This document shows positions 17,892 through 41,549 of a DNA stretch of 64,000 bases, piece after piece (the first letter of the stretch is position 1; each line of letters starts with the position of its first letter). The translations under genes and the position numbers were made by a program. Source of the stretch: an uncultured Acidobacteriota bacterium (GTDB lineage: Bacteria; Acidobacteriota; Vicinamibacteria; Vicinamibacterales; UBA2999). The notes under the pieces were generated by a model. That model did not search any database and was not told the origin of the DNA. It worked only from the letters and a program-made list of their open reading frames with translations. Location: NCBI GenBank assembly GCA_902826065.1, contig CADEDM010000004.1, positions 4,547 through 68,546 of the forward strand, read 5' to 3'.

Positions 17892-17907
17892 GGGCGCGAG
17901 CCTTGCA
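17892..17907 (+). promoter_or_regulatory. sigma54-like -24/-12 motif (one core mismatch)
   Basis: gGGCGCgagccTTGCA has correct GG-N10-GC spacing, with GGCGC in place of GGCAC. It lies 77 nt upstream of ATG 17984. Confidence 0.3.
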
Positions 17908-17983
17908 GTCCGCCCTTTCAGCCGCTCCGCCCCATGAGTCCGGAGCGCCAGTGGGTAACCGTTTACCCAGGAGGAGTAACTCA

Positions 17984-18367
17984 ATGCGTATCACGCTCAA
18001 GCCCGTCGCGGTCCTGCTGCTTCCCGTCATGCTCGCCGCGTCGCCGGCCTTCGCCGCCCAGCGCGTCGTCGACGCGGCAGCTCTGCAACGGGCCCTGGCT
18101 GCCCAGAGCGCCGCCGAAGAGGCCACGCGCGCCGACGTGCGGCGCGTCCTCGATCGCGCCGAGGTGCAGGCCCTCGCGGCGCGGATGGGCCTCGACCTCG
18201 GCGACGCGCGGTCCGCGGTGGCCACGCTATCCGGCGTGCAGCTCGCCCAGGCCGCCGAACGCGCGCAGGCGGTAGACGTCGCCCTCGCCGGCGGTGCCGC
18301 GACGGTAGTCATCTCGCTGACCTCGCTGCTGCTGATCCTGATCATCGTCATCCTGCTCGCGGACTGA
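17984..18367 (+). CDS. small secreted protein with C-terminal membrane anchor (PA2779-like)
   Basis: Internal ATG of ORF 17729..18367, with GGAGGAG upstream. Signal peptide LLLPVMLAASPAFAAQ, Ala/Gln-rich helices, and C-terminal TM VVISLTSLLLILIIVILLAD. From memory it resembles the PA2779 family, which is encoded next to PA2778-type peptidases. Confidence 0.6.
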   Translation: MRITLKPVAVLLLPVMLAASPAFAAQRVVDAAALQRALAAQSAAEEATRADVRRVLDRAEVQALAARMGLDLGDARSAVATLSGVQLAQAAERAQAVDVALAGGAATVVISLTSLLLILIIVILLAD

Positions 18368-18378
18368 CGGCCCGGCGG

Positions 18379-20502
18379 ATGCGGGTTCCAGCGAGCACGC
18401 TGGCGGCCGTCGCGGGCGTCGTTCTGTTGGCGACGCCCGCCGCCGCGGCGGCTCAGGATAGCGCGCTCCGGGCGCCGGCGACAGTCGCCGGCCGCCTGCT
18501 CGACGTGCCGTTCCTGCCGCAGACGGAAGATCTCTGCGGCGGCGCGGCCGTGGCGATGGTGCTGCGCTATTGGGGCGATGGCGCCCGCCCCGACGACTTC
18601 GCCGCGCTCGTCGATCGCACGCGGGCCGGCATCGCCGCCGACGTGCTCGCGGCCGACGTCCGCCGCCGCGGCTGGACGTCGTTGCCATTCCAGGGAGCCC
18701 CGGGCCGCGCCGGCCTCGACGAGATGCGCGGGCATGTCGACGCCGGGCGGCCCGTCGTGGCGCTGATTGCGGTGGGGCCGGACCGCTACCACTACGTCGT
18801 GGTGGTAGCCGTGACGGACGACGCGCTGGTCGTGCACGACCCGGCGCAGGCGCCGTTCCGCGTGCTGCCGGCGGCGGCGTTCGACGAGGCATGGGCGGCT
18901 TCGGGACGCTGGGCGTTGATGGTCTTGCCCTCGGACCAGGGACCAGGGACCGGGGACCGGGGACGAGGGCAGCGCAGCGAACCCGACGCGGCGCCTGCGT
19001 CCGAAGCGCCGGCGGCAGCAGCCGCACTCGAGCGGCCCGCGTCGACCGACGCCTGCACGCCGTGGGTGGACGATCTCGTCGCGCAGGCCAACGGCGGCGA
19101 CCTGTCCGGCGCCGGCCGCGGGCTCGAGGCGGCCGCTACGGTCTGCCCGCAATCGGCCGGCGTCTGGCGCGAACTCGCCGGCGTGCGCTTCCTGCAACAG
19201 CGATGGACCGATGCGGCGGCGCTGGCCCGTCGCGCCACGGCTCTCGACACCGCCGACGACGATGGCTGGGAACTGCTGGCCACGAGCCTGTTCCTCGACG
19301 GCCGGCGCGACGAGGCGCTCGAGGCCTGGAACCATCTCGATCGTCCGCAGGTCGATGTCGTGCGCGTTTCCGGCGCGAAACGCACGCGGCAGCCGGTGAT
19401 CGCGGGACTCGTCGGCCTCGAGCCGCGCTCGACGGTGACGCCCACGGCCCTGGCCCGCGCCGCCCGCCGACTCGACGCCCTGCCCAGCGCGCTCACGACG
19501 TCGCTGCGCTATCAGCCGATCGAGGGCGGGCTGGCGACGATCGAGGCGGCGGTCGTGGAGCGGTCGGTCGTGCCGCGCGGCCTCGTGCCGGTCGCGGCGC
19601 TGGCGGCACAGGCGGCGATCCAGCGCGAGGCGCGCCTGTCGGTCGCCTCGCCCGCCGGCCAGGGCGAACGTTGGTCGGCCGCGTGGCGCTGGTGGGAACA
19701 GCGGCCGCGGGTCGCGTTCGCGCTGGCATTGCCGATGGTGGCGGGCTGGCCCGGAATCACCACGGTTGACGGCCTGTGGGAACGCGCCACCTACGCGACG
19801 CCACGGGGACGCGCGTCAACCACCCAACTCGAACGCCATCGTGCCGGCCTGCAGGTGAGCGACTGGGCCAGCGGCCGGCTGCGCTGGTCGGCCGGCGTGG
19901 CGCTCGATCGCTGGGACACGCAGCGCTACGGCAACGCGGAGGCGGGTGTCGATCTGCGGCTCGCGGCCGATCGCATCGCGGTCGCCGGCACGATCGGCGG
20001 CTGGGCCGCGTCGGGGCCAGGTTCGGGATTCGGGCGGCTGTCGCTGGAGGTCGCCGCGCGCAGCCGCGCCAGCGTCGATACGGCGGCGTGGCACGTGCTG
20101 GCCGGCGCCACCGGCGTGTCGCCGGCCGCGCCGTTCGACCTCTGGCCGGGCGCCGGTCTGGGCCTGGCGCGCGCGCCGCTGCTGCGTGCGCATCCGCTGC
20201 TCGACGACGGTGTCGTCACCGGCCAGGTGTTCGGGCAGCGGTTGCTGCACGGCACGGTCGAGTACCGGCGGCCGCTGCGGTCGACGGCCGCCGGCCAGAT
20301 CGCGATGGCGGCGTTCTCCGACACCGCGCGCGCGTGGCGCACCGTGGCGGGTGAGGCCGCGTGGCACAGCGACGCCGGCATCGGGCTGCGGGTCTCGCTG
20401 CCGGCCGATGCCGGCACGCTGCGGCTCGACCTGGCTCGCGGACTGCGCGATGGACGGCACGTGCTCTCGGCAGGATGGAACACGTCGTGGCCGGATCGCT
20501 GA
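18379..20502 (+). CDS. C39-like cysteine peptidase - TPR - POTRA - Omp85-type beta-barrel fusion protein
   Basis: ORF 18379..20502. Signal peptide; Cys block FLPQTEDLCGGAAVAMVLRYWG and His block HYVVVVAVTDDALVVHDP; TPR-like helices; POTRA-like VDVVRVSGAKRTRQPVIAGLVGLEP...IEAAVVER. The terminal barrel strands (GTVEYRRPL, AAFSDTARAW, GIGLRVSLPADAGTLRLDLARGL...LSAGW) look like Omp85/surface-antigen barrels. Confidence 0.7.
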   Translation: MRVPASTLAAVAGVVLLATPAAAAAQDSALRAPATVAGRLLDVPFLPQTEDLCGGAAVAMVLRYWGDGARPDDFAALVDRTRAGIAADVLAADVRRRGWTSLPFQGAPGRAGLDEMRGHVDAGRPVVALIAVGPDRYHYVVVVAVTDDALVVHDPAQAPFRVLPAAAFDEAWAASGRWALMVLPSDQGPGTGDRGRGQRSEPDAAPASEAPAAAAALERPASTDACTPWVDDLVAQANGGDLSGAGRGLEAAATVCPQSAGVWRELAGVRFLQQRWTDAAALARRATALDTADDDGWELLATSLFLDGRRDEALEAWNHLDRPQVDVVRVSGAKRTRQPVIAGLVGLEPRSTVTPTALARAARRLDALPSALTTSLRYQPIEGGLATIEAAVVERSVVPRGLVPVAALAAQAAIQREARLSVASPAGQGERWSAAWRWWEQRPRVAFALALPMVAGWPGITTVDGLWERATYATPRGRASTTQLERHRAGLQVSDWASGRLRWSAGVALDRWDTQRYGNAEAGVDLRLAADRIAVAGTIGGWAASGPGSGFGRLSLEVAARSRASVDTAAWHVLAGATGVSPAAPFDLWPGAGLGLARAPLLRAHPLLDDGVVTGQVFGQRLLHGTVEYRRPLRSTAAGQIAMAAFSDTARAWRTVAGEAAWHSDAGIGLRVSLPADAGTLRLDLARGLRDGRHVLSAGWNTSWPDR
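18934..18969 (+). repeat. imperfect 7-8 nt tandem repeat (GACCAGG/GACCGGGG x5) in a linker-coding region
   Basis: gaccagg gaccagg gaccgggg gaccgggg gacgaggg. It encodes the DQGPGTGDRGRGQ linker between the peptidase and TPR parts. Confidence 0.6.
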
Positions 20503-20565: not shown

Positions 20566-22491
20566 TCAGCTGAAGGCCGGCTCGGGCGCCGGCGTCGGCG
20601 GTGGCGGCGGGACGACGGCGGCCTCGACCGCGGGCATTGCCGCCAGACGCGCCTGCAGGAAGGCGCGCGACTCCTGAAGCGTCGCGCCGACGTGCTGGGC
20701 GCCGGCGTTGGCCAGTGTCGCACCGGCCTCGTCGGCGCCGACCGTCCCCGTCCAGCGGCCCACCATGATGGTGAGGTCGGGCGCCGCTGCGCGCAGCCGC
20801 TTCACCACGTACTTCGCGCGCGACGCCGAGCTCGGCGGCAGATCGGCGAGGCAGACGATCGAGACGTCGTGGGCGCGAGCCCAGTCGGCCAGTTCGCCGG
20901 TGAACAGACGCCCCGGGCTTTCCATCGCGATCGGCAGATCGTCGACCATGCGCGCGAGCGCTTCGAGGGCGAGCTGATCGGCGGCGCCGGTGACCGCATG
21001 GCCGAGCACGCGGAGCCGCGCACCCGACCCGGGCGCGGCTGGCTGCGGCGCGTGCTGGTTGGCGGCTTCGGCACGCCGCACGTGCTCGGCGGCATCGACC
21101 AGCAGTTCGCCGGTGGCGGCGACCACCGCACGCTCGCCATCGGCGTCGAGCCGGCCCTCGAGCCGATCGGTCTCGGCCTGCGCGAGCGCCGGCAGCACCA
21201 GCGTGTCGTAGACCGATCGCGGCGACGCCGCCTCCACGTGCCGCTCGATCAGATCCAGCGCGTCGCTCGTGTCGCGCGCCAGCAGCCGTTGGTAGAAGAC
21301 CTGGGCCGGCGTCGCGGCCGACGTGTCGGCCATCAGCGTGGCGAGGAACTCGAGCCCGCGCACGTGCTTGCCGATGACCACCAGGCACACGGTGAGCGGG
21401 ATGGCGAGCAGCAGCCCCATCGCGCCCCACAGCCACGTCCAGAACGTGACGGCGACCAGCAGGCCGACCTGCGACACGCCGGCGGCGCCCGCATAGAGCA
21501 CCGTCTCGAGCACCAGGTTCGTGAAGAGCTCGAGCGCGATCATGAACCCGAGGACGTAGAGCGGCTGCTGCCACGAAGCGGACGCCGCGACGGCCACGAT
21601 CACGGGCGCCGACAGGCCGGCGAGCGGGCCGACGTAGGGCAGGTAGCGCACCGCGCCGCCGAAGACGCCCCACACCGCGGGATACGGCACGTCCAGCGCC
21701 CACAGGCCGGCGGTGGCCACCACGGCGTAGATCGTGTTCACCGCCGACTGCATCAGCAACTGCCGGGCGACGCGGCTGCCGGCCTCGTCGAGGGCGCGGG
21801 TGGTGCGGGGAATCTGCCCGCGTCCCGCCAGCGACACGATGCGATCGCGCAGGTCCCGACGCTCGAGCAGCATGAAGATGACGAGCGTCACGACGAGGCC
21901 GGCCGAGGCCCCGAGACCCAGCATCGGCCCGAGGATGCCGAAGATCGACTGCTCGGCCGCGCGTTCGGCGATGACCACCCGCGCCGGCCGGCGCGGCGCC
22001 GCCACCGCCGCCAGGTCCTGCTGGACGCGATCGATCGTCTTCTGGATCTCGTCGACGGCGCCGCCCTCGCGTGCCGTGCGCAGCTGCCCGAGTTTCGCGA
22101 CCAGCGTGTTGCGGAAGCGCGGCAAGTCGGCGGTGACGCCGTCGAGCTGACGCAGCAGCAGCCAGCCGGCGCCGCCGAGCAGCGCGACGACCACGGTCAC
22201 CGCGCCCAGCACCGCCGGCACGCGCCCGACGAACCGCTCGAGCCGCGACACGATCGGCGACAGCAGGAACGTGAGCAGTGCCGCGAACGCGATCGGCACC
22301 AGGAAGCCGCGCGCCGCGCCCAGGGCGGCGACGACGACGATGGTGCCGAGCAGCGCCAGCCAGGCGTTGGGGCGCGGACGGTGCAGGCCGTCACGCGCCG
22401 GGCCCGGCGCCGCATCGCGCCGCGCCGGCGGATCGTCGCGAAGCGCCGCTGGCGGTCTAGTGTCCATACCAGCGCCGTGGCTGCTGTCCAT
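20566..22491 (-). CDS. AI-2E family transporter (PerM-like) fused to a C-terminal B12-binding-like cytoplasmic domain
   Basis: ORF 20566..22590; start at ATG 22491 or 22467. Eight or so TM helices of AI-2E type (PIAFAALLTFLLSPIVSRLE...). The C-terminal ~230 aa resemble a helical B12-binding_2 module plus a Rossmann-like module (RLRVLGHAVTGAADQLALEAL...VSIVCLADL) and lack the DxHxxG His. Confidence 0.75.
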   Translation of the reverse strand: MDSSHGAGMDTRPPAALRDDPPARRDAAPGPARDGLHRPRPNAWLALLGTIVVVAALGAARGFLVPIAFAALLTFLLSPIVSRLERFVGRVPAVLGAVTVVVALLGGAGWLLLRQLDGVTADLPRFRNTLVAKLGQLRTAREGGAVDEIQKTIDRVQQDLAAVAAPRRPARVVIAERAAEQSIFGILGPMLGLGASAGLVVTLVIFMLLERRDLRDRIVSLAGRGQIPRTTRALDEAGSRVARQLLMQSAVNTIYAVVATAGLWALDVPYPAVWGVFGGAVRYLPYVGPLAGLSAPVIVAVAASASWQQPLYVLGFMIALELFTNLVLETVLYAGAAGVSQVGLLVAVTFWTWLWGAMGLLLAIPLTVCLVVIGKHVRGLEFLATLMADTSAATPAQVFYQRLLARDTSDALDLIERHVEAASPRSVYDTLVLPALAQAETDRLEGRLDADGERAVVAATGELLVDAAEHVRRAEAANQHAPQPAAPGSGARLRVLGHAVTGAADQLALEALARMVDDLPIAMESPGRLFTGELADWARAHDVSIVCLADLPPSSASRAKYVVKRLRAAAPDLTIMVGRWTGTVGADEAGATLANAGAQHVGATLQESRAFLQARLAAMPAVEAAVVPPPPPTPAPEPAFS

Positions 22492-22999
22492 GGGGCGGCA
22501 GCGCCTCGGCGGTCTCGATGGTGGCCGCGGGCACGCCCGTGGCGCGGGCGACGCGACGCCGGATCTCCAGCACCTCGTCGAACGCCTCACGCAGGAACCG
22601 CGTGGCGCCCACCTCCTCGAGCCGTTCGGCGCGGGCCGCCGCCAGCACCAGCACGGTGCCGATGTAGTGCAGCGCGTTCTGCAGCGCGGTCCCGACGATG
22701 TGGGCTTCGAGCAGTGGATGGCCGAGCCGATGCCGCTGCGCGTGCCAGCGAAGGTCGATGATCCCGGTCAACGTGGGCGAGGCGACCGGCACCCGGTCCA
22801 CGCCCAGCGCACCGAGGGACGCGTCGAGCCGTTCCCGTTGTCCGTTCTGTCGCACCGCTACGTCCTTGGCGAGGTCGGCTACCGCACCAGGCCGGGCCGT
22901 GCCCGCCATCATCCCGGCCGCGTCGGCGAGATCGCCGGTGGCCGTGTGCAGCTCGCCGATCTCGAACGCAAGAGTGCGATGCAAGGGGGAGTGCTCCAT
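22457..22999 (-). CDS. hypothetical helical protein (possibly distant ferritin-like/DUF892-related)
   Basis: ORF 22457..23215. Start candidates are ATG 23008 and ATG 22999; 22999 was chosen because the sigma54 motif at 23012-23027 predicts a TSS near 23001. GC3-rich frame. The 3' end overlaps the AI-2E start, which suggests an operon. Confidence 0.5.
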   Translation of the reverse strand: MEHSPLHRTLAFEIGELHTATGDLADAAGMMAGTARPGAVADLAKDVAVRQNGQRERLDASLGALGVDRVPVASPTLTGIIDLRWHAQRHRLGHPLLEAHIVGTALQNALHYIGTVLVLAAARAERLEEVGATRFLREAFDEVLEIRRRVARATGVPAATIETAEALPPHGQQPRRWYGH

Positions 23000-23011: not shown

Positions 23012-23027
23012 AGCAACGCGCGTGCCC
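23012..23027 (-). promoter_or_regulatory. sigma54-type -24/-12 promoter
   Basis: The reverse complement reads GGGCACgcgcgTTGCT, a perfect GGCAC-N5-TTGC core. It lies in the 118-nt gap upstream of the 22999 gene. Confidence 0.5.
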
Positions 23028-23117: not shown

Positions 23118-23792
23118 TCACCGCGGCGGCGCCGCGAGCGAGGCGACGACGCCCAGGATCTCCAACGCGTCGACCGGCTTCGGCACGTGCCTCTGGAAGC
23201 CGCTGTCGAGCGCACGCGTGCGGTCCTCGGCCCGCGCGCATGCGGTCACGGCGACCGCCGGCACGTCACCACCGCGTTCGGGCGAACGGCGTCGCACCGA
23301 CGCGATGAACTCGAAGCCGTCCATGCCGGGCATGCTGATGTCCGAGAGCAGCACGTCGGGCACGAACGTATCGAGTATCGCCAGCGCCTCGGCGGCCGAG
23401 GCGGCGGTGTGGACGTCGGCGCGGAAGCGCGTCAGGACGAACTCGAGCAGTTCCCGCGCGTCCGCTTCGTCGTCGACGACCAGCACTCGGAGGTTGGACA
23501 GATCGGGTGGTCCGGGGAGCGCCTCGTTCCTGCGTTCAGGACCGGGCTCGTCGCGATCCGTCGTCGCGGCAGGCAGCGACGGACGCACCGCGTATGGCCC
23601 GCCGCCGCTGGGGCGGTCTTTGTCCACGGCCACCGGTTCGCCGTGATTGTCCGCATCCGGCCGCAGGCTCGTGGCTCGCGTGTCGGTTGCGGCGTTCGTC
23701 CGCCGCGCGCGATTGGCGACCTGCCACGGCTCGCGCCGCGTGCGTTCGGTGCGCTGGCGGGCGAACCAGCCCCGTGCCGATGGGCCGGTCAT
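23118..23792 (-). CDS. response regulator (receiver domain) with ~95 aa disordered N-terminal region
   Basis: ORF 23118..23792. REC domain LRVLVVDDEADARELL...LLSDISMPGMDGFEF...HVPKPVD. The ATG overlaps the upstream stop (ATGA). Confidence 0.8.
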   Translation of the reverse strand: MTGPSARGWFARQRTERTRREPWQVANRARRTNAATDTRATSLRPDADNHGEPVAVDKDRPSGGGPYAVRPSLPAATTDRDEPGPERRNEALPGPPDLSNLRVLVVDDEADARELLEFVLTRFRADVHTAASAAEALAILDTFVPDVLLSDISMPGMDGFEFIASVRRRSPERGGDVPAVAVTACARAEDRTRALDSGFQRHVPKPVDALEILGVVASLAAPPR

Positions 23793-24316
23793 GACACCGC
23801 TCGCAGGCTCCGACGCGGATCGCCATCGAGCAGTCCGCTGCCCAGACGCGCGCGCAGCGCGGAAGCGCGGGCGCTATCGAGCAAGGCGGCCGCATCGCGG
23901 CCGTGCACAGGGTAGATGGCCATGCCGACCACGCCGTCCCGGTCACCCGTGGTCACGACCGCGCGCAGCCGTTCGGCCAGCCGATCGCCCTGAGCCGGAT
24001 GGTCGAGTCCCGGCGCGACGACGACGAGCGCGTCGCCGACGCGGACGTACTGATCGGCCCGACGGAGGCAGCCGGCCACGGCAGCCTCGAGGGCGTTGAC
24101 GCTCGGGCGCGCCTGGGCATCCGACCGGCTCAGGTCCACGAGGCACACGGCCGCCCGCCGCCCCGAGCGTCGCGCGTCGTCCACGGCGGCGCCGATCACC
24201 GCGTGCACGGGCGAACGATAGGGTTGCTCGACGAGCTGCGGAATGGCGTCGGCGGCCGCCGCAGGCGCCGCCGCCAGCATGACCATCTCGAGGAACGAGT
24301 CGGGGAGGAGTGGCAT
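23789..24316 (-). CDS. degenerate GGDEF-like domain protein
   Basis: Within ORF 23789..24559; start at ATG 24316 (MPLLPDSF) with AGGAAG upstream. GGDEF-fold pattern with VGDALVVV in place of GGDEF/GGEEF, followed by GMAIYPVHGRDAAALL. Confidence 0.6.
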   Translation of the reverse strand: MPLLPDSFLEMVMLAAAPAAAADAIPQLVEQPYRSPVHAVIGAAVDDARRSGRRAAVCLVDLSRSDAQARPSVNALEAAVAGCLRRADQYVRVGDALVVVAPGLDHPAQGDRLAERLRAVVTTGDRDGVVGMAIYPVHGRDAAALLDSARASALRARLGSGLLDGDPRRSLRAVS

Positions 24317-24340: not shown

Positions 24341-24356
24341 AGCAAGGCGCGTGCCG
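24341..24356 (-). promoter_or_regulatory. sigma54-type -24/-12 promoter
   Basis: The reverse complement reads CGGCACgcgccTTGCT (perfect core). The predicted TSS near 24330 is 14 nt upstream of ATG 24316. Confidence 0.5.
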
Positions 24357-24514
24357 GTGTCATGGCAGTGACGGGGGCCCGGACTGTGGCACCGGCTACC
24401 GAGGAACGGTAGGCGCGGCTCCACCCATGCCGTCCAACTGCCGCCCGAGCCTCGATTTCCGGCGCTACGGCCGGCTCCGAAGCTGCGCGCACGCCGTCGA
24501 GCCGGGCATGGGCC

Positions 24515-26140: not shown

Positions 26141-26145
26141 CGACG

Positions 26146-26186: not shown

Positions 26187-26660
26187 CTAGGCCTTGTTGA
26201 TGCCGGTCACGGCCAGGTGGGTCAGCGTGTGATTCGCCTTCTTCTCCTGGTCGAGCACCTGCGTCAGCAGGTCGTGCGCGCGGGTGTGGCCCAGCGCCTT
26301 CGCCCACTCGCGCAGCGTGCCGTAGCGGGCGATCTCGTAGTGCTCGATGGCCTGGCAGCAGCCGATGACGGCGGCCTGGCGCGCGATGCCCGATGCGTCG
26401 GCCATGACGCCGTCGCACTCCTTGATCAGGCCGTCGATGGCGTCGCACTTCTCGCCCGAGGCCTCCTCGCCGATTTCCGCGAACACGTCGTCGAGCACGG
26501 CAATCTGTGCCTTGGTCTCGGTGAGGTGCTGCTTGAGCGCCGCTTTCAGATCGGCTGACGACACCTTGGCGATGACCTTCGGCAGCGCCTTCGTGAGCGC
26601 GTGTTCGGCGTAGTAGACATCCTGCAGGGTGTGATGGAAGGCGTCGGCGAGTGTCTTCAT
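26187..26660 (-). CDS. DUF892 (YciE/YciF-type ferritin-like) stress protein
   Basis: ORF 26187..26660. Pattern LQDVYYAEHALTKALPK...LKQHLTETKAQIAVLDDVF...QAIEHYEIARYGTL...LDQEKKAN. GGAG lies 9 nt upstream. Confidence 0.85.
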   Translation of the reverse strand: MKTLADAFHHTLQDVYYAEHALTKALPKVIAKVSSADLKAALKQHLTETKAQIAVLDDVFAEIGEEASGEKCDAIDGLIKECDGVMADASGIARQAAVIGCCQAIEHYEIARYGTLREWAKALGHTRAHDLLTQVLDQEKKANHTLTHLAVTGINKA

Positions 26661-26800
26661 GGCAGCGAGCTCCGTAGATGTACAGCGGCCGCGAGGCGCG
26701 GATTGATCGGTGACGAATGGGCAGCGCGCTGCCCTCTCTGGCGACCGGGCTCCCCACCTCGGCAGGGCGAGGCCACGGCACGCCGTCCATCGGCGACAAC

Positions 26801-32400: not shown

Positions 32401-35400
32401 CGCGGGCGCGGGCCATGCTTGCCGACGACGACCGCGAGTGGCTGCAGGCCCTGGCGCGCGACACGTGGCGCTTCTTCGAGACGTTCACGACCGCCGAGCA
32501 TCACCACCTGCCGCCTGACAACGTGCAGTTCACGCCCGACGTGCGGGTCGCGGCGCGGACCTCGCCGACCAACATCGGGATGGGCCTGCTGTCGATGCTG
32601 GCGGCCCACGACCTGGGATTCCTGCCCGCCGACGAGCTCACCGGACGCATCGAGCGGACGCTCGCGAGCCTCGAGCGCGTCGAGAAGGTCCACGGCCACC
32701 TGCTGAACTGGTACGACACCGCGACGCTGGAACCGCTGCGGCCGGCGTATGTCTCGACCGTCGACAGCGGCAATCTCGCCGGCGCCCTGCTCACCGTGGC
32801 CGTGGCGCTCGACGAGGCGGCGGAGGGATCGGCCGACGCGGGCGCGCTGCACGCGCTGGCGGCGCGCGCCCGCCAGCTGGTCGACGACATGGACTTCACG
32901 TTCCTGTTCGACCCGGCGCGCGAGCTCTTCGCCATCGGCTATCGCGTCGCCGACCGCGACGGTGTCGGCCGGCTCGATACGTCGTCGTACGACCTGCTCG
33001 CGTCCGAAGCGCGCCTGGCCAGCTTCCTCGCCATCGCCCGCGGCGACGTGCCGCAGCGGCACTGGTTCCGCCTGGGACGTCCGCTCACCGTGCTGCACGG
33101 CGCCCCGGTGCTGCTGTCGTGGAGCGCCACGATGTTCGAGTACCTGATGCCGGCGCTGCTGATGCGCGCCTATCCGGAGACGCTGCTCGCGGCGTCGGCC
33201 GTACGGGCGGTGCGGCATCAGCGAGAGTACGCGCGGTCGCTGGGCGTGCCGTGGGGCATCTCGGAGTCGGCGTACTCGGTCGTCGATCGCCACGACACGT
33301 ATCAGTACCGGGCCTTCGGTGTGCCGGGGCTCGGGCTCGCGCGCGGCCTGGCCGACGATCTCGTGGTGGCGCCGTATGCGACGGGACTCGCGCTCGCCGT
33401 TGCACCGACGGCCGCCGTCGGCAACCTGCGCCGGCTGGCCGGCCTGGGCGCGCGTGGCGAGTTCGGGTTCTACGACGCCGTCGACTTCACCGATCGCACG
33501 GCGCCCGGTGACGGCGCCCGCGCCCGGCGGCACGCGGACACCGGCACCGTGGTGCAGACCTGCATGAGCCACCACCAGGGCATGATGCTCGTGGCCATCG
33601 CCAACGCGCTACTCGACGACCGCATGGTGGCGCGCTTCCATCGCGACCCGATGGTACGGGCGACGGAGCTGCTGCTGCAGGAACGCGTGCCGCGGCCGCC
33701 GGCCGAGTCGATGAAGCCGGGAGAAGACGACGCCCGGGTGCCGGCCACGGCCACGACCGTGCCGGTGCGCCGCTATCGTTCCGCGGTCACCCCGGCGCCG
33801 CAGGCGCAGTTGCTCTCGAACGGCGCCTACGTGGTGGCCGTCACCAACGCCGGCGGCGGCGCGTCGTCGTTCCGCGGGCTGGCGGTCACGCGCTGGCGGC
33901 GCGACGCGACGTGCGACCCGGCGAGCCAGGCGCTCTATCTGCGCGACGTGCGCAGCGGCGCCGTCTGGTCGGCGACGCACCAGCCGACGTGCGTGGAGGC
34001 CGAGGAGTACGTCGCCACGTTCCACCCGGACAAGGCGACGTTCCAGCGCATCGACGACGATCTCGCGACCCAGCTCGACATCGCCGTCTCGCCCGAGGAC
34101 GACGTCGAGGTGCGGCGCCTGACGCTGCGCAACCACGGCCTGCGCGCCCGCGAGATCGAGGTGACGAGCTACGTCGAGATCGCGCTGGCGTCGATGCGCG
34201 ACGACCTCGCGCATCCGGCGTTCGGCAAGCTGTTCGTCGAGACGAGCTACGCGCCCGAGAGCACCGCGATCCTGTGCCGGAAGCGGCCGCGGCAGAAGAA
34301 CGACGAGCTGTGGGCGGTGCACGTCCTCAGCCTCGAGGGCCACGCGTTCGGCCCGGTGGAGTGGGAGACCGACCGCGAGCGGTTCATCGGCCGGGGCCGC
34401 ACGCTGGCGGCGCCGCGCGCGCTCGACGGGCGAGCGCTCAGCGGCACCACCGGCACCGTGCTCGATCCCGTGTGCAGCCTGCGGTTGCGGGTGCGGGTGC
34501 CGGCCGGCGGCCAGGCGCGGGTGGCGTTTGCAACCGGCGTCGCCGCCAATCGTGAGGCGGCGGTGCGACTGGCGCGCACCTACCACCATCCGGCCGCGAC
34601 GTCGCGGGCCTTCGCCCTCGCCTTCACGCACGCGCAGGGCCTGCGCCAGCACCTCGGCGTCTCGTCGGAGGACGCGCGCGTGTTCGAGCGCCTGGCCTCG
34701 CTGCTCCACTACGTCGACGAATCGGGACGCGCCGAGCCGGCCGTGTTCGAGGCCAACACGCTCGGGCAACCGGGCCTGTGGCGCCACGGCCTGTCGGGGG
34801 ATCTGCCGATCGCGTTGGTGCGCGTCGGCCCCGGCTCCGACGGCCCCGACCTCGTGCGCCAGGTCCTGCAGGCGCAGGAGTACTGGCGCATGAAGGGGCT
34901 CACGTCGGACGTCGTGGTCGTCAACGAGCATCCGGTCTCGTACTTCGACGAGATGCACGCGGCGCTCACCGACGTGCTGGCCTCGGGTCCGTGGCGGGCC
35001 TGGACCAACAAGCCGGCCGGCGCGCTGCTGCTGCGCCGCGACGCCCTGTCCGACGAGGAAGACCGCCTCCTGTCGGCGGTGGCGCGCGTGGTCGTGCGCA
35101 GCGGCGAGGGCGACCTGCGCATGCAGCTCGACCCGCGACGCCCGGCGACCGCGGCGGCGACCCCGCCCTCCGATGCCGCCTACGAGCCGCTGCGCGGCGC
35201 CCCGGGCGCGGCGTCGGCGCTGGTCCCGGCGTCGGCGCCCACTGCGCCGCGAGCCGGCGTGGACGTGGGGCTCGGCCGTTTCCTCGACGCCGGCCGCACG
35301 TTCGCCCTCGAGGTCGGTGAGGGCCGCGACACGCCCACACCGTGGTCGAACGTGCTCGCGAACGCAGCGTTCGGCTCGCTCGTCACCAGCAGCGGCGCCA

Positions 35401-37721
35401 GCCACACCTGGGCCGTCAACAGCCGCGAGAACCGCCTGACGCCGTTCGCGAACGACCCGGTGTCGGACCCGACGGCCGAGGCGATCTACCTGCGCGACGA
35501 CCTGAGCGGCGAGATCTGGTCGCCGACACCGGCCCCCGTTGCGACGCGCGGCGCCGGCACGGTCGACGTGCGGCACGCCCCCGGCCTCACCACGTTCCAG
35601 CGCGAAGTCCGTGGCATCGCGTCGATGCTCGAGGTGTTCGTCGACGTCGAGGCGCCGGTGAAGTGCGCACTCCTCACGCTCGCGAACCGCGGCGACAGCC
35701 CGCGCCGTCTCAGCGTCGTGCCGTACTGCCAGTGGGCGCTGGGCCCGCCGCAGGACGGCCACCACCTCCACGTCGTCACGCACTACGACTCCGGCCGCGG
35801 CGCCGTGCTCGCGACCAACGCGTTCAGCGACGTCTTCCGCCGCCGCGTCGCGTTCCTGGCGACGTCGTACCGGCCGCGGGCGGCCACCGCCGACCGCGCG
35901 GCGTTCCTCGGCCGTTTCGGCACCATGGCAGATCCACCGGGAGCGCGTCGGCCCCTCGTCTCGCGATTCGGCGGCGGTCTCGACCCGTGCGCCGCGCTCG
36001 AAGTCGGCGTCGAGATCGGCGCCGGTGAGACGGTGCGCCTGGTGGTCGTGCTTGGACAAGGGGACGACGCCACCCACGCCGGCGCCCTGATCGATCGCTT
36101 CGCCAACGTGACCACGGCAGCCGCTGCGCTCCAGCGCGTGCGGGAGTCCTGGGCGGCGTCGCTCGATGCCGTGCGCGTGCGGACGCCCGACGACTCGTTC
36201 GACACGATGATGAACACCTGGCTGCTGTACCAGACGCTCGCCTGTCGCGTGCACGGGCGCACGGGGTACTTCCAGCCGGGCGGCGCCTTCGGGTTCCGCG
36301 ACCAGACGCAGGACGTGCTGGCGCTCTGCCATGCGCGCCCCGATCTGACCCGTGCGCACCTGCTGCGCGCGGCCGCCCATCAGTTCGTCGAGGGCGACGT
36401 GCAGCACTGGTGGCACGAGCCGTCGGGCCGCGGCCTGCGGTCGCGCTGCTCCGACGACCTGCTGTGGCTGCCGTTCGCCGTCGCCGAGTACGTGCGGCAC
36501 ACCGGCGACCTCGCGTTGCTCGACGAACGCGTGCCGTACCTCCATGCGCCGGTCCTGCCGGCCGGCGTCGCCGAGTCGTACGACCTGCCGCAGTCGGGTC
36601 CCGACGACGGCACGATGCTCGATCACTGCCGACGCGCGGTCGATCGCGTGCTCGCGCTCGGCGAAGGCGAGCACGGCCTGCCCCTGATGGGCGGGGGCGA
36701 CTGGAACGACGGCATGAACCTGGTCGGCGACGAGGGCCGCGGCGAGAGCACATGGCTCGGCTTCTTCCTGCACGGCGTGCTCGAGCGCACGGCGTGGCTG
36801 TGCGAGGCGGCCGGCGAGGCGGCCACGGCGACGCGTTATCGCCACGAGTCGAGCCGGCTGGTGCCCGCCCTCGACGCCGCGTGGGACGGCGAGTGGTATC
36901 GCCGCGGCTACTACGACGACGGCACGCCGCTCGGCGCCGCCCATGCCGACGAGTGCCGCATCGATTCGATCGCGCAGTCGTGGGCGGTGCTGTCGTCGGT
37001 GGTGCCGCGGGCCCGGGCGGAGCGCGCCATCGACGCCGTGCGCGCGCACCTCGTCTCGCGACAGATGCGCACCATCGCGCTGCTGACACCGCCGTTCGAC
37101 GCCTCGGCGCAGGAGCCCGGCTACATCAAGGGCTATCCGCCGGGCGTGCGCGAGAACGGCGGCCAGTACACGCACGCCGCCGCGTGGTTCATCATGGCGC
37201 TGGCGCGCCTCGACGCCGGGGACGAGGCGATGGAGCTGTTCCACATGATCAACCCGGTGAACCGCTCGCGGACGCGCGCCGACGTCGATCGCTACCGGCT
37301 CGAGCCGTACGTGGTCGCCGGCGACGTCTACACGCACCCGCAGCACCCGGGACGCGGCGGCTGGTCGTGGTACACGGGCTCGGCGGGCTGGCTGTATCGG
37401 GCCGGCCTCGAGCACCTGCTCGGCCTGCGGCGCGCCGGCGCCACCGCGTCGATCGACCCATGCGTGCCGTCGGCGTGGCCGGGCTTCGAGATCGAATGGC
37501 GGCACGGGCGATCGACGTATCGCATTCGCGTCACCAACCCGCATCGCGTCGGGCGCGGTGTCCAGCAGACGCTGCTCGACGGCCACCCCGCCGAACCACA
37601 CTGCATCCCGCTCGTCGACGACGGCGAGACCCACGTCATCGATGTGACGCTCGGCGGCCGCGGCGCCGATGCCGCGCGCACCGGACCGGCATCGCGCACG
37701 CCGTGGCATGGTCGTTGCTAA
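29478..37721 (+). CDS. cyclic beta-1,2-glucan synthase-like protein (GT84 glycosyltransferase + TM region + GH94 phosphorylase-like domains), 2,747 aa
   Basis: Single ORF 29478..37721. N-terminal [20 protein letters not shown] region, a GT-A-type block (ILSDFADA...[13 protein letters not shown]...LSHDLFEG), multiple TM helices, and C-terminal GH94-type motifs ([31 protein letters not shown]). Size and order match NdvB/Cgs-type enzymes. The start codon (GTG 29478, alternative 29511) is uncertain. Confidence 0.85.
37704..37719 (+). promoter_or_regulatory. sigma54-type -24/-12 promoter (overlaps the 3' end and stop of the glucan synthase gene)
   Basis: TGGCATggtcgTTGCT is a near-consensus match. 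The predicted TSS near 37730 is 28 nt upstream of the csbD ATG. Confidence 0.6.
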
Positions 37722-37757: not shown

Positions 37758-37982
37758 ATGGCGAAGCAGGTGACGACGACGATGAGTGATCAGTGGGCGC
37801 GCGTGATGGATGCCGCCCGCGCGCGCTGGGGCAAGCTGAGTGCCGACGACGTGCAGAGCGTGCAGGGCAACGCCGAGCGCCTGATCAGCGTGCTGCAGGC
37901 GCGCTACGGCTTCGGGCGCGGCGAGGCCCTCGACGAGCTGAAGCGGTGGCGGCGAACGCTGAGCGCCGGCGTAGCCGCCTGA
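37758..37982 (+). CDS. csbD: CsbD family general stress protein
   Basis: ORF 37758..37982 (74 aa). CsbD-like pattern WGKLSADDVQSVQGNAERLISVLQARYG. GAGGAG lies 6 nt upstream. Confidence 0.85.
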   Translation: MAKQVTTTMSDQWARVMDAARARWGKLSADDVQSVQGNAERLISVLQARYGFGRGEALDELKRWRRTLSAGVAA

Positions 37983-38058: not shown

Positions 38059-38074
38059 AGGCATCGTTCTTGCC
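38059..38074 (+). promoter_or_regulatory. sigma54-type -24/-12 promoter
   Basis: AGGCATcgttcTTGCC has correct spacing. The predicted TSS is near 38085, upstream of GTG 38143. Confidence 0.5.
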
Positions 38075-38142
38075 CCTCTCGGGCGTAGCGACGCACCGCC
38101 GTCCCTGGCTGAGGCCGCGTGCTACCCACCGAGGAGGTTCCC

Positions 38143-38856
38143 GTGCCCTATCTGAGCAAGTTCGTCCACTCCTTGTCGGCCGGCGGCTTCGCGATCGCGG
38201 CGCTGACGCCCGTCGCGGCCGCTGCCGACCCGGCTGCGGAGATCGCCAGGCTGCGTCAGGCCGGCGTGGTCCTGCAGGAGCTGGTGCAAGCCCCCGACGA
38301 CGCCATTCCCCAGCACATCCTCGATCGCGCCGAAGCCATCGTGGTCATCCCGACCCTCGTGAAAGGCGGCTTCATCATCGGCGCCGAGCACGGCAAGGGC
38401 GTGATGAGCCTCCGCGATCGCACGACCCGCGCGTGGAGCCTGCCAGCCTTCGTCGCGCTGACCGGAGGCAGCCTGGGCTGGCAGATCGGCGTGCAGTCGA
38501 TCGATCTCGTGCTGCTGGTGATGAACCCCGACGGCGTCGATGACCTGCTGCGGTCCGAGTTCACCCTCGGCGCGAACGCCTCGATCGCCGCGGGCCCCGT
38601 GGGCCGATCGGCGCAGGCCGCGACCGATGCGTCGATGTCGGCGAAGATCCTCGCCTACTCACGCGCGCGCGGCCTCTTCGCCGGCGTCAGCTTGCAGGGC
38701 GCCTCCCTGCGCGACGATCGCGACGCCAACGGCGACGTCTACGGGAAACCGCAGGACGCGGCCGACGTGTTCAAGACCTTGGCCGCGACGCCGGTGCCCG
38801 CGGCCGCGACGTCGTGGCGCGAGACGCTGGCGCGCCTGGCGCCGTTCTCACGCTGA
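38143..38856 (+). CDS. SYLF (Ysc84/DUF500) lipid-binding domain protein, secreted
   Basis: ORF 38119..38856. GTG 38143 is preferred because GAGGAGG lies 5 nt upstream. Signal peptide, then SYLF pattern AIVVIPTLVKGGFIIGAEHGKGVM...GGSLGWQIGVQSIDLVLLVMN...GANASIAAGPVGR...GLFAGVSLQGASL. Confidence 0.8.
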   Translation: MPYLSKFVHSLSAGGFAIAALTPVAAAADPAAEIARLRQAGVVLQELVQAPDDAIPQHILDRAEAIVVIPTLVKGGFIIGAEHGKGVMSLRDRTTRAWSLPAFVALTGGSLGWQIGVQSIDLVLLVMNPDGVDDLLRSEFTLGANASIAAGPVGRSAQAATDASMSAKILAYSRARGLFAGVSLQGASLRDDRDANGDVYGKPQDAADVFKTLAATPVPAAATSWRETLARLAPFSR

Positions 38857-39202: not shown

Positions 39203-39352
39203 TCAGACGGGGTTGCGGCCCTGGATGATGCGGATGCACATCACCGCGATCGCCAGCACCAGCAGCAGGTGGATGAACCCGCCCATCGTGTACGAACTCA
39301 CCATCCCCAGCAGCCACAGGATCAGCAACAGAATCAGAATCGTGTTGAGCAT
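39203..39352 (-). CDS. lmo0937 family small membrane protein (49 aa)
   Basis: C-terminal part of ORF 39203..39820. MLNTILILLLILWLLGMVSSYTMGGFIHLLLVLAIAVMCIRIIQGRNPV matches the remembered family pattern (...WLLG...SYT.GGFIH.LLV.A......I.GR). GGAGG lies 5 nt upstream of ATG 39352. Confidence 0.8.
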   Translation of the reverse strand: MLNTILILLLILWLLGMVSSYTMGGFIHLLLVLAIAVMCIRIIQGRNPV

Positions 39353-39384: not shown

Positions 39385-39699
39385 TCAGGCGACGGGTTGT
39401 TCGCCCCGCGCCCGGCGCGTGGCCGAGTGGGCCACCGAACGGGCCCGGGCTTCGAGCGCGTGCGCGGCCGAGCCCACGGTCTCCTGCAGGCTGTTGACCG
39501 CGCCGCCGGCGCGCGACGCCAGCGTCTCGTAGCGATTCGCGGCCGCGGTACGCAGGCCGTCCATCGACTCGCCGAGCTCCGACCGCAGCACCCGGCCCGA
39601 CTTGGGAGCGAACAGCAGGGCCAGTCCGGCGCCGATGAGGGCGCCCGAGACGATGCCTGCGGCGACGCGGCGTGTGTTGTCGTAGTCGTTGCGATACAT
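39385..39699 (-). CDS. YtxH domain-containing protein
   Basis: Within ORF 39385..39807; start at ATG 39699 with GGAG upstream. N-terminal TM GIVSGALIGAGLALLFAPKSG and a helical tail typical of YtxH. Confidence 0.8.
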   Translation of the reverse strand: MYRNDYDNTRRVAAGIVSGALIGAGLALLFAPKSGRVLRSELGESMDGLRTAAANRYETLASRAGGAVNSLQETVGSAAHALEARARSVAHSATRRARGEQPVA

Positions 39700-39799
39700 C
39701 ACGTGTCTCCTTCGACAAGTGGGCCGTCGAGCGCCGCGCACGGCACGCCCGCCGCCGCGACTGAGCGCGGCGCCGGTTCGGCTCTGCCTCCGCCCTAGA

Positions 39800-39814
39800 G
39801 CGAACACCGTGCCA
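39800..39814 (-). promoter_or_regulatory. sigma54-like -24/-12 motif
   Basis: The reverse complement reads TGGCACggtgtTCGC (TCGC instead of TTGC). It lies 100 nt upstream of the ytxH ATG and is divergent from the activator gene. Confidence 0.4.
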
Positions 39815-39992
39815 GCTCAAAAGCCGGTTCTGTCGTGGCGTATAGGTAGTGCGTTACCCATTCACGGGAGTCGCTGCGCCTCGCAGCCGCCCCGATCCCT
39901 GCGCGCGAATAACATAGGGGTGCCATGCCCCCCTTTCCCCTGCCCCTGCCTCGACCGTCAACCGTCAGCGCGCGCCCGCCCGAGGAGTCGAG

Positions 39993-41549
39993 GTGACCGG
40001 CCGCATCGCCGTTGTCGACGACGATCGCGCGTTCACCGAGTACATGGCGACGTGGCTCGGCGCGCGCGGCCTGGCCGTCGACGTCTTCCACAGCGGCACC
40101 GCCCTGCTCGACGCCCTGCGTGGCGGCCTGGCGCCGCAGGTGGTCCTGCTCGACGTGCTGATGCCCGAGCTGAGCGGGCTCGACACGCTGCGGGCCATCC
40201 GCCAGACGAGTGCGGCGCCACAGGTCATCATCCTGTCGGGCCGGCAGGCGCCGGCCACGGTGATCGAAGCGGTGCGCCTGGGCGCTGCCGACTACGTGCT
40301 CAAGCCCGATGACCCCGACGGCGTCGGCGAGGCCGCGCTCGAGGCCGCGATCAACCGTGCCCTGGAGCGGGAAACGCTCGCCGCCGAGGTGGCGCGGCTC
40401 GGCGCGCAGATGAGCGAGGAGCCCGACGGCGCCCAGCCTTACTGGAGCGCCGGCGCGGCCATGCAGCGCGTCATGGCGATGGTGGAGCGCGTCGCCGACA
40501 GCGACGTCGGCGTGCTGATTCGCGGCGAAAGCGGCGTCGGCAAGGAGGTGATCGCGCGCGAGCTGCATCGGCGCTCGCCCCGTCGCGCCCATCCATACGT
40601 GAAGGTGAACTGCGCGGCGCTGCCCGCCGATCTGCTGGAAAGCGAGCTGTTCGGACACGAGCGCGGCGCCTTCACCGGCGCCGGCGCGACCCGCGTCGGG
40701 CGCTTCGAGTTCGCGCAGCGCGGCACCATCATGCTCGACGAGATTGGCGAGATGCCGCTGGCGCTGCAGGCCAAGATCCTGCACGCACTGCAGGACCGGT
40801 CGTTCACGCGCCTGGGCAGCAATCGCGCCATCGACGTCGACGTGCGCGTGATCTCGGCGACCAATCGCGATCTCGACGCGATGATGCGGGCCGGCACGTT
40901 CCGCGAGGACCTCTACTACCGCCTGCAGGTGATCGAACTGCGCGTGCCGCCGTTGCGCGAGCGCGTCGATGAGATCGCGCCCCTGGTCGAGTTCTTCCTG
41001 GCCAAGTACGCGCGCGTCTACCGCCGGCCGCCGGTGCGACCGTCGCCACTGCTGCTGCAGGCCCTGCGGCAGTATGCGTGGCCGGGCAACATCCGCGAAC
41101 TCGAGAACATGATGAAGCGGCTGGTGGTGCTGCAGGACGAGGGGCTGATTCTCGCCGAGCTCGATCGCCTGCGGACCGAGGCGTCGTCAGCGGCGGCCGA
41201 GAGCCACGTCCGCGCGGCCGAGCCCGCGCGGCCGGCGCCGCTGCCGCTCGCGGGACCGCCGATCATGCCGCTGACCGTCGAGACGACGGCCGCTGACGAC
41301 GCGTCGCCCGGCGCAGCCGCGGCCATCGTGGACGAGGCGCCCGTCGCGGAGCCGGCGCCGGATCCGGCGGTCGTCGGCCTGCACGCCGTGGCTCGGGCCG
41401 CGGCGCAGAAGGCCGAGCGGGAGGCGATCCTCCAGGCGCTGGGCATGTTCCGCTGGAACCGCCGCAAGGTCGCCGACTACCTCGACGTGAGCTACAAGAC
41501 GCTGCTGACGAAGATGAAGGACTGCGGCATCTCGGACGCCGCGCAATGA
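39993..41549 (+). CDS. sigma54-dependent Fis-family response regulator (NtrC-type bacterial enhancer-binding protein)
   Basis: ORF 39993..41549, with GAGGAG 5 nt upstream of the GTG. REC domain (VVLLDVLMPELSG), AAA+ domain with Walker A GESGVGKE and the sigma54-contact loop GAFTGA, a long Ala/Pro linker, and a C-terminal Fis-type HTH (NRRKVADYLDVSYKTLLTKMK). Confidence 0.9.
   Translation: MTGRIAVVDDDRAFTEYMATWLGARGLAVDVFHSGTALLDALRGGLAPQVVLLDVLMPELSGLDTLRAIRQTSAAPQVIILSGRQAPATVIEAVRLGAADYVLKPDDPDGVGEAALEAAINRALERETLAAEVARLGAQMSEEPDGAQPYWSAGAAMQRVMAMVERVADSDVGVLIRGESGVGKEVIARELHRRSPRRAHPYVKVNCAALPADLLESELFGHERGAFTGAGATRVGRFEFAQRGTIMLDEIGEMPLALQAKILHALQDRSFTRLGSNRAIDVDVRVISATNRDLDAMMRAGTFREDLYYRLQVIELRVPPLRERVDEIAPLVEFFLAKYARVYRRPPVRPSPLLLQALRQYAWPGNIRELENMMKRLVVLQDEGLILAELDRLRTEASSAAAESHVRAAEPARPAPLPLAGPPIMPLTVETTAADDASPGAAAAIVDEAPVAEPAPDPAVVGLHAVARAAAQKAEREAILQALGMFRWNRRKVADYLDVSYKTLLTKMKDCGISDAAQ

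Follow-up and report, generated by a model that had tools for sequence, protein, structure and literature searches.

Predicted sigma-54 promoters cluster beside an NtrC-family activator gene in a stress and envelope gene island of an uncultured Acidobacteriota bacterium

In a 64-kb stretch of DNA from an uncultured soil bacterium of the Acidobacteriota, probably of the Vicinamibacteria (contig CADEDM010000004.1; the whole stretch is called the window below), genes for stress-type, membrane and signalling proteins are interspersed with motifs of the sigma-54 (−24/−12) type between about 17.9 and 39.8 kb, next to the gene of an NtrC-family enhancer-binding protein. The G+C content is 70–75% across the entire window. 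A rough gene map leaves about 10% of it noncoding, which is more than the intergenic share of 6–7% tallied in the initial annotation of this DNA. The closest relatives of its cyclic glucan synthase gene ndvB are from Acidobacteriota metagenome-assembled genomes (MAGs); one of them, found by a genome scan and referred to as L037, has a protein identity of 70% and a DNA identity of 77%. Vicinamibacterales is given as the source of homologues of the DksA-like protein, and Logan assemblies contain contigs of the same organism, one identical and one 99.9% identical. L-numbers denote the relative loci or contigs used for comparison.

Gene families were assigned by Pfam, NCBIfam or BLASTP, and the gene labels of the initial annotation hold, with a caveat for the degenerate GGDEF protein only. 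At the left end of the island lie, on the plus strand, the genes of a small PA2779-family protein (17984–18367; NCBIfam PA2779_fam, E 5e-10) and of a C39-peptidase/TPR protein (18379–20502; Pfam Peptidase_C39_2, E 1e-12). They are followed on the minus strand by an operon of a 180-aa helical protein without a family match (22457–22999) and an AI-2E-family transporter (20566–22467; Pfam AI-2E_transport, E 6e-37), a gene pair that is also present in L163 and L165, and by an operon of a degenerate GGDEF protein (23789–24316) and a receiver-domain (REC) protein (23118–23792; Pfam Response_reg, E 5e-23). The degenerate GGDEF label has no Pfam support, but the protein aligns pairwise to the GGDEF domain of the neighbouring cyclase at 27862–28704 (BLASTP, 30% identity, E 2e-6), with RVG-DAL replacing GGDEF. 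Next come a 532-aa membrane protein (24542–26140, +), a DUF892/YciE-like ferritin-like protein (26187–26660, −; Pfam DUF892, E 3.5e-51; the YciE label has one source), a 66-aa membrane protein, here called mem66 (26937–27137, +), a DksA/TraR-like zinc-finger gene (27287–27745, +) and a PAS-GGDEF cyclase gene (27862–28704, +), the last two assigned by Pfam. Two short open reading frames (ORFs) on the minus strand separate these from ndvB. One encodes 67 aa rich in Pro, Arg and Asp (28754–28957) and is called as a gene in L001 and L171. The other, orf59 (29189–29365), is conserved, encodes 58 aa instead of the 59 aa given before, has no Pfam match, is kept in L037 (59% identity) and is called as a gene in L171. 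The NdvB-like cyclic beta-1,2-glucan synthase itself has 2,747 aa (29478–37721, +; Pfam GH94 supersandwich, E 3e-143; GH94 catalytic, E 2e-110; plus GT2). Downstream of it are a CsbD/YjbJ-family gene (37758–37982, +; YjbJ model PRK10428, E 9e-10, under that model's cutoff), a SYLF/Ysc84 gene (38119–38856, +; Pfam Ysc84, E 1e-35) and, on the minus strand, the operon of ytxH (39385–39702; Pfam YtxH, E 2e-12) and a DUF5670 small membrane protein (39203–39328; Pfam DUF5670, E 3e-11).

The NtrC-family enhancer-binding protein is encoded at 39993–41549 (+), divergently from the ytxH operon. It consists of a receiver domain, an AAA+ domain and an HTH_8 domain (Pfam Response_reg, E 7e-22; Sigma54_activat, E 3.7e-69; HTH_8, E 7e-7), and its translation contains ESELFGHERGAFTGA with the GAFTGA loop, a Walker A motif (GESGVGKE) and the receiver aspartate. 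Domain searches show no other activator gene in the window, as had been stated. Among solved structures its best relatives are 4l4u and 1ny5, NtrC-family regulators from Aquifex. It scores below every NCBIfam equivalog cutoff (AtoC 388.8 against 714, NtrC 368 against 558.6, PEP_resp_reg (PrsR) 346.2 against 502.6, ZraR 300 against 760), and it is not an orthologue of any named activator.

Eleven intergenic sites fitting TGGCAC-N5-TTGCW, each pointing at the next gene, had been listed in the initial annotation. All eleven were found at their coordinates and strands by a direct check of the sequence. The exact GG-N10-GC spacing claimed for them holds for ten, the site at 26801 having GG-N10-GA. 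We compared the window with 300 dinucleotide shuffles in a graded scan, in which GG and GC were fixed and at least 6 of the 7 auxiliary positions of TGGCAY-N5-TTGCW had to match, and scored it with a position weight matrix (PWM) trained solely on sites from relatives. Over the whole window the core GGCAC-N5-TTGC occurs 5 times where 0.59 are expected (0/100 shuffles reach 5), and 9 graded sites are seen against 1.37 ± 1.16 expected, the shuffle maximum being 5. Eight of these nine lie at most 160 nt upstream of the start of a gene on the same strand, all within 23.0–39.8 kb. When the graded scan is confined to intergenic DNA (6.2 kb) it gives 7 sites against 0.13 expected, with a maximum of 2 in 1000 shuffles. 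Eight of the listed sites match at least 6 of the 7 auxiliary positions, and the top eight PWM scores of the whole window all belong to listed sites. The strong sites thus exceed every shuffle and are placed upstream of genes in the sense orientation, which confirms that the sigma-54 motif cluster is real. The statement that there are four perfect cores, all intergenic and sense, needs one addition: four such cores are present, but a fifth, at 37831–37844 (−), lies antisense within csbD. It stems from the codons of the conserved WGKLSADD motif of csbD and is probably not a promoter. Similarly, no strong site was found in gaps outside 17.9–39.8 kb, as reported, but one strong match lies outside this range, at 43726 (−) within a histidine-kinase coding region. 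We rejected it as a promoter in view of the high third-position G+C of the kinase coding sequence and its poor −12 element.

The predicted promoters with a perfect core precede the helical/AI-2E operon (GGGCACGCGCGTTGCT, 23012–23027, −; PWM 14.2), the degenerate-GGDEF/REC operon (CGGCACGCGCCTTGCT, 24341–24356, −; PWM 15.7), the DksA/TraR-like and PAS-GGDEF genes (CGGCACACGCGTTGCA, 27213–27228, +) and ndvB (GGGCACTGCCCTTGCA, 29450–29465, +). The candidate for the csbD gene, TGGCATGGTCGTTGCT (37704–37719, +), overlaps the last codons of ndvB and has the best graded score, 7/7 (PWM 17.6), and those for orf59 (TGGCGCGAGCGTTGCA, 29423–29438, −) and the ytxH operon (TGGCACGGTGTTCGCT, 39799–39814, −) reach PWM scores of 16.1 and 15.5. 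Two sites deviate from the consensus and would be promoter variants: TGGCACGTCGATTGAA (26801–26816, −), with GA at −12, in front of the DUF892 gene, and TGGAACGGCGCTTGCT (26847–26862, +) in front of mem66, with the −24 box TGGAAC, i.e., A for C after GG, and yet the top PWM score of the window, 19.7. The site AGGCATCGTTCTTGCC (38059–38074, +) of the SYLF/Ysc84 gene is weak by score and a probable promoter, and the one upstream of the PA2779-family gene, GGGCGCGAGCCTTGCA (17892–17907, +), has a graded score of 5 and a PWM score of 9.8 in the noise range. We also found two sites that had not been listed before. One, GGGCATGGGCCATGCA (24504–24519, +; PWM 9.4), is a further candidate upstream of the gene of the 532-aa membrane protein; it appears as AGGCACGGCCCATGCA in L163, and homologues of that gene have sigma-54 sites in L126 (8653, −) and L175 (1342, +). 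The other, TGGCCCGGGATTCGCA (29074–29089, −), upstream of the 67-aa ORF, is a candidate at most, as its PWM score is only 6.6.

In order to assess the conservation of the sites we used L037, 80 metagenome loci around activator homologues, and contigs found via degenerate-GGDEF and DksA-like homologues (L163–L165 and L171–L176), at 62–88% identity in pairwise or four-way alignments. Nine sites (23012, 24341, 26801, 26847, 27213, 29423, 29450, 38059 and 39799) stand out as invariant −24/−12 blocks in diverged intergenic DNA. For 29423, 29450, 38059 and 39799 the reference was L037, for 23012 and 24341 it was L163 and L165, and for 26801, 26847 and 27213 the blocks are invariant across four lineages. 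Both blocks of 23012 are kept in L163 and L165 between diverged flanks, and a conserved noncoding block of its own lies 45–75 nt upstream; 24341 is kept in the same two contigs. The orf59 site is also kept in L171 and L173, the ndvB site in L171. At 38059 the letters GGCATCG.TCTTGCCCCT are kept in L037 between diverged flanks, and an equivalent of the ytxH promoter is present in L037, L083 and about 18 more loci of activator orthologues.

The two variants recur in relatives. At 26801, TGGCACGTC..TTGAAG is invariant across the four lineages and its flanks have diverged. In at least 14 activator loci a REC gene is preceded by the type TGGCAC-N5-TTGAA/TTGTA, which in L175 stands before the DUF892 operon, and every DUF892 homologue that adjoins an activator orthologue has a sigma-54-like site. 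The −12 element of 26801 had been called weak. We confirm the GA for GC in TTGAA, but in view of its conservation in four lineages it is best regarded as a promoter variant of these lineages and not as a defect. A match at L096 4468 (−) was rejected as a sigma-54 site, being the ribosome-binding region of DUF892 on the wrong strand. Likewise, TGGAAC/TGGAAT-N5-TTGCW recurs upstream of mem66 homologues and of related small membrane peptides in many relatives.

L175 (GCA_050187355.1, 1–12447), a MAG locus from Vicinamibacterales, has the same promoter types before the same gene families, including CGGCACGCCGGTTGCA upstream of a DksA-CsbD-PAS-histidine kinase operon. It forms a compact island without ndvB, with genes for a 537-aa protein, an outer-membrane-protein (OMP)-beta-barrel/DUF892 operon, mem66, the DksA-CsbD-PAS-kinase operon, Ysc84, a PLD-domain protein, DUF5670 and a YtxH-like protein. 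As L175 has this set without ndvB, the island genes travel together independently of the glucan synthase. The ndvB promoter is kept at the same offset in L037 (−28 from the start codon, with diverged flanks), and among 48 genomes from many phyla sigma-54 sites upstream of ndvB homologues were absent save in this closest relative and, in weaker form, in L003. The promoter is therefore specific to the lineage and no general property of ndvB. The conserved GTG start codon of ndvB follows only 12 nt past the promoter 16-mer (29450–29480; L037 325–355), and the predicted transcript would be almost leaderless and lack a ribosome-binding site.

The sites 29423/29450 and 26801/26847 form divergent back-to-back pairs, with the −24 boxes facing each other and 7–30 nt between the 16-mers (11 nt for 29423/29450). 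Pairs of this kind are also seen at L037 297–340, L171 3086–3128, L175 4530–4579, L108 4527–4566 and L115 13529–13568, so that two different gene pairs have kept this layout in several lineages. With so few nucleotides between the 16-mers there is no room for an enhancer between the two promoters, and two holoenzymes might not be able to occupy such a pair at once. The DUF892 leader, which is also the upstream region of mem66 (26661–26790), contains a block of about 80 nt that is near-invariant in four lineages, against an overall intergenic identity of about 80%. This block holds the palindrome GGCAGCGCGCTGCC, described below, and also the near-palindrome ACGGCacGCCGT. Folding the leader as RNA yielded hairpins but no covariation.

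By aligning orthologous ytxH-operon promoters we found a conserved upstream element, T.CC-N7-GGTA-N6-TACC, which we generalise to T.CC-N7-GGYA-N6-TRCC with the palindromic core GGYA-N6-TRCC. In 12 relatives it lies 30–33 nt upstream of the ytxH −24 box, whichever gene lies farther upstream. The window (128,000 positions) was scanned with a 25-nt PWM made from relatives only and with the exact core pattern; a 31-nt PWM matched the ytxH copy only and told less. The best of the 128,000 positions, with 23.7 bits, is TCCCgtgaatgGGTAacgcacTACC (39845–39869, −), a putative activator binding site 30 nt upstream of the ytxH −24 box. All six exact cores in the window are noncoding, and five are wholly intergenic, against 0.22 expected (0/1000 shuffles reach five). 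One copy, TACCgttcctcGGTAgccggtGCCA (24387–24411, −; PWM 8.2, p ∼5.5e-5 per position), lies exactly 30 nt upstream of 24341 and thus in the register seen at ytxH; here the window, L163 and L165 agree in TACCGTTCCT.GGTAGC and differ in the spacer. Another copy with an exact core match, TACAcagaaggGGCAgcgcatTGCC (27147–27171, +), lies 41 nt upstream of 27213, one helical turn farther than the 30-nt register; ACACAGAAG.GGCAGC...TTGCC is invariant in four lineages, and again the 40-nt spacer diverges. The gap between the DUF892 gene and mem66 contains the perfect palindrome GGCAGCGCGCTGCC (26720–26733; with flanks 26709–26744), an exact core that is invariant in four lineages, 113 nt upstream of 26847 and 67 nt downstream of 26801. 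A further copy, TACTcctcctgGGTAaacggtTACC (17954–17978, −), is found in the gap between the patatin-domain and PA2779-family genes, 46 nt downstream of 17892; it has one mismatch to the core (0.12 such matches expected in the window), is the third-best match of the element PWM and is kept in L163. Finally, the core palindrome GGCACGGGCCTGCC (29174–29187), exact and noncoding, lies just past the stop codon of orf59, about 250 nt from the 29423/29450 pair, and is kept in L171. The distances of the element to the −24 box (20, 30–33, 41 and 61 nt) differ by about one helical turn.

At the window's left edge, the second-best match of the element PWM, TGCGgttctacGGTAgcaccaTGCC (69–93; core 80–93), overlaps the start codon of a short-chain-dehydrogenase-like gene. 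No sigma-54 site is near it, and the DNA upstream lies beyond the window edge. An 8-mer with three exact copies, TGGGTAAC, was discarded as a separate motif, two of the copies being half-sites of the element and the third (29360) the MGN start of orf59.

The activator gene is followed by a signalling cluster (41546–47222). According to Pfam it comprises a 205-aa protein with only a HisKA domain (41546–42163, +), whose gene overlaps the stop codon of the activator gene, a REC protein (42144–42557, −), a histidine kinase (42606–43844, −) and a CHASE3-PAS-histidine kinase-REC hybrid kinase (43936–46203, +); an extracytoplasmic function (ECF) sigma factor and a possible anti-sigma factor are also part of it. 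In relatives the activator orthologues are likewise flanked by genes for a HisKA and a REC protein, mostly with the HisKA gene ahead of the activator gene and the REC gene in divergent orientation to it. In L037 a sigma-54 site, TGGCACCCCGTTTGCG (12383–12398, +), lies between the activator gene and the HisKA gene downstream; in the window, unlike in L037, these two genes overlap and there is no site between them.

Orthologues of the activator were found in 57 metagenome loci (57–79% identity, 470 kb in total), in which sigma-54 motifs are five-fold enriched (71 against 14.0 ± 4.0 expected). The genes that follow these motifs encode YtxH/DUF5670, DUF892, mem66, CsbD, BON-like and REC proteins. 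More distant paralogues (52–56% identity) in L140–L162 are followed by a perfect TGGCAY-N5-TTGCT and then by a second activator gene (e.g., L146 1964, L162 11685), a layout that suggests a sigma-54 cascade from activator to activator.

Taken together, we consider it likely that the promoters predicted between 23.0 (or perhaps 17.9) and 39.8 kb are genuine and form a dense sigma-54 cluster, on part of which the adjacent activator would act in the following way. About ten promoters would drive separate short transcription units. Their products would be small proteins of the stress or membrane type (YtxH and DUF5670, CsbD/YjbJ, DUF892/YciE, the DksA/TraR zinc-finger protein and the 58- and 66-aa proteins), signalling proteins (the PAS-GGDEF protein, acting in c-di-GMP signalling, and the degenerate GGDEF and REC proteins), and the AI-2E-family transporter, the SYLF/Ysc84 protein and the NdvB-type cyclic beta-1,2-glucan synthase. 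Sigma-54 RNA polymerase would form closed complexes at the sites. The neighbouring kinases would phosphorylate the receiver domain of the activator, which would then oligomerise on the element, whose 30- and 41-nt distances upstream of the −24 box place it on the same face of the helix, and open the closed complexes at the expense of ATP. One may speculate that the phosphorelay receives feedback from the REC protein encoded in the 24341 operon and, in relatives, from the REC genes that follow TTGAA promoters. The net result would be that sigma-54 and a phosphorelay govern a programme for the envelope and osmotic stress that falls to sigmaS, sigmaB or EcfG in model bacteria.

Several observations weigh against this reading, and we take them up together with the rival explanations. 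One is that the motifs are a product of chance or composition in 72% G+C DNA, or sites of a sigma-70-family or ECF sigma factor. Matches with a graded score of 5 are indeed near background (27 against 16.8 expected), which is why 17892 and 38059 are not separable from noise by score, and 17892, lying at noise level, is weak and not supported beyond chance. Its identity in L163 is uninformative, since the whole region is 90–95% identical, and for the same reason we dismissed the 90% identity of the 17781–17983 gap to L163 as a sign of constraint, the neighbouring genes themselves being 92–95% identical. The intragenic matches at 37831 and 43726 and the presence of three ECF-type sigma genes in the window point the same way. 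At 37704, where no relative spans the junction, the prediction rests on the perfect score and the position. Moreover, the Pfam/NCBIfam gene survey found no rpoN gene within the window. Set against this, an intact GAFTGA activator implies sigma-54, and GG-N10-GC spacing is the signature of sigma-54. The high-scoring sites lie beyond every shuffle and sense-upstream of genes, and their −24/−12 blocks are kept between diverged flanks in several lineages. EcfG-type promoters (GGAAC-N16-17-CGTT) were not found in the island, the single match in the window lying inside a gene at 24816, at chance level (0.60 expected). We regard chance or another sigma factor as highly improbable and largely refuted. 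Given their enrichment, their correct position and orientation with respect to genes and the conservation of their blocks, with an intact activator adjoining and no EcfG motif in the island, the assignment of the motifs to sigma-54 is strongly supported.

It is less clear which protein serves the promoters. The initial annotation had linked them all to one activator. The element is indeed common to the ytxH, degenerate-GGDEF/REC and DksA promoters and the DUF892/mem66 gap, which partly supports a single activator, for about half of the promoters, but no copy lies at the 23012, csbD or SYLF sites. The promoters may be genuine sigma-54 promoters served by several enhancer-binding proteins, the adjacent activator controlling the ytxH operon and perhaps a few element-bearing promoters, while ndvB/orf59, csbD, SYLF and the helical/AI-2E operon answer to activators encoded elsewhere. 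We take this to be a real possibility. No element copy lies near 23012, 37704 or 38059, nor within about 250 nt of 29423/29450. The 220-nt upstream regions of the eleven sites share no other k-mer (k = 7–10) apart from overlaps between neighbouring regions, and the conserved block upstream of 23012 is a different one. Among relatives, the exact element is hardly seen outside the ytxH promoter, and its wider use may accordingly be peculiar to this organism and those closest to it. A second activator paralogue stands beside the ytxH operon in many relatives (L101, L102, L113–L115, L121 and L135), so that several activators per genome are likely. On the other side stand the single activator gene in 64 kb, the co-occurrence of activator orthologues with sigma-54-bearing DUF892, mem66, CsbD and BON-like genes, and the element copies within the island, given that enhancers can act over several hundred bp. 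This activator may reach the promoters of the helical/AI-2E operon, csbD, SYLF and ndvB/orf59 from afar or by way of sites that were not recognised, or other activators may serve them. Binding of the element by the activator is itself something that we infer from adjacency and conservation. The element might instead be the target of a different protein, for example a repressor, co-regulator or nucleoid-bending protein, with the sites of the activator elsewhere. The element is unusually close to the −24 box, its centre lying at about −65, and enhancers of well-studied activators are found farther away, at 80–150 bp. In addition, the copies at 17954 and 26720 lie downstream of candidate promoters, and the copy at 80–93 has no sigma-54 site nearby. 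We nevertheless think this unlikely. A palindrome of 14 bp is a fitting target for a dimeric Fis-type HTH, in 12 relatives the element goes with the promoter that adjoins the activator gene whatever gene lies upstream, and its distances to the −24 box are spaced by about a helical turn.

A much wider form of the proposal, in which the entire island including cyclic glucan synthesis and c-di-GMP signalling is one regulon, is possible but rather doubtful. In Acidobacteriota of the Vicinamibacteria type, sigma-54 and a single activator under a phosphorelay would then be in charge of the response to general stress, osmotic stress and desiccation, with no dedicated stress sigma factor. The distinctive promoter architecture would lie in an activator site only about 30 nt upstream of the −24 box, near-abutting −24 boxes of divergent pairs, and the lineage-conserved TGGAAC −24 and TTGAA −12 variants.

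Among known systems, the island resembles the NtrB/NtrC-glnAp2 paradigm, with Aquifex NtrC1 and NtrC4, in the REC domain, the AAA+ domain with GAFTGA, the Fis-type HTH, the adjacent kinase gene and the palindromic upstream site before a GG-N10-GC promoter. It differs in that the predicted regulon consists of stress and envelope proteins and not of nitrogen assimilation genes, and in the position of the putative site, which is centred at about −65 as against beyond −100. The nearest functional analogues are PspF/pspA-E and ZraSR/zraP of enterobacteria, where sigma-54 and an activator likewise control small envelope-protective proteins; zraP and zraSR are divergent sigma-54 units, and PspF and ZraR are sequence relatives of the AAA+ domain of the activator. 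The island has about ten promoters, far more than these systems, a broader cargo (cyclic glucan synthase, c-di-GMP enzymes, CsbD, YtxH and DUF892), and divergent pairs that stand back-to-back with no enhancer between them. In gene content it overlaps with the regulons of sigmaB in Bacillus, sigmaS in E. coli and EcfG in Alphaproteobacteria, CsbD/YjbJ, YtxH, YciE-type DUF892, DksA-like and BON-like proteins being typical members of general-stress regulons. In contrast to those regulons its promoters are of the −24/−12 and not the −35/−10 type, and activation would need ATP hydrolysis by the activator and not the release of a sigma factor by partner switching. Thus, what we describe would be a new regulon of the classical NtrC/sigma-54 mechanism with some unusual promoter architecture, and not a new mechanism.

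Comparative genomics has described sigma-54 as a central controller of the bacterial exterior (Francke et al., 2011; PMC3162934), a theme that the periplasmic glucan, membrane proteins and c-di-GMP signalling of the island fit. The text of that study makes no reference to Acidobacteria or glucan and refers to the general stress response only as sigmaB background and in the reference list. In a full-text literature search we found no account of a CsbD/YtxH/DUF892 regulon driven by sigma-54, nor of regulation by sigma-54 in Acidobacteria. To call the regulatory design unusual, as the initial annotation did, therefore seems fair, although it fits the exterior theme.

Acidobacteriota, notably Vicinamibacteria, are abundant in soils including dry soils and are hardly tractable, and we found no description of how their stress genes are controlled. 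The locus offers a concrete model for this, with a sensor-kinase cluster, one sigma-54 activator, a candidate binding motif and about ten predicted promoters before genes of osmoprotection, the envelope and c-di-GMP. If the model is true, gene sets of the sigmaS, sigmaB and EcfG type would have been rewired onto enhancer-dependent transcription in another phylum, a wiring that would give tight off-states and integration by a phosphorelay. The back-to-back pairs and the very proximal putative activator site would then be test cases for the access of an activator to the sigma-54 holoenzyme.

Elsewhere in the window, three genes encode ECF/sigma-70-family sigma factors (1416–2294, 11589–12476 and 46270–46851), one of them fused to a SnoaL domain. 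Within 12940–17780 a Tle1-like phospholipase-domain gene stands beside the large patatin-domain gene of about 1,200 aa, and a tRNA gene at 47483–47555 is the sole Rfam match of the window.

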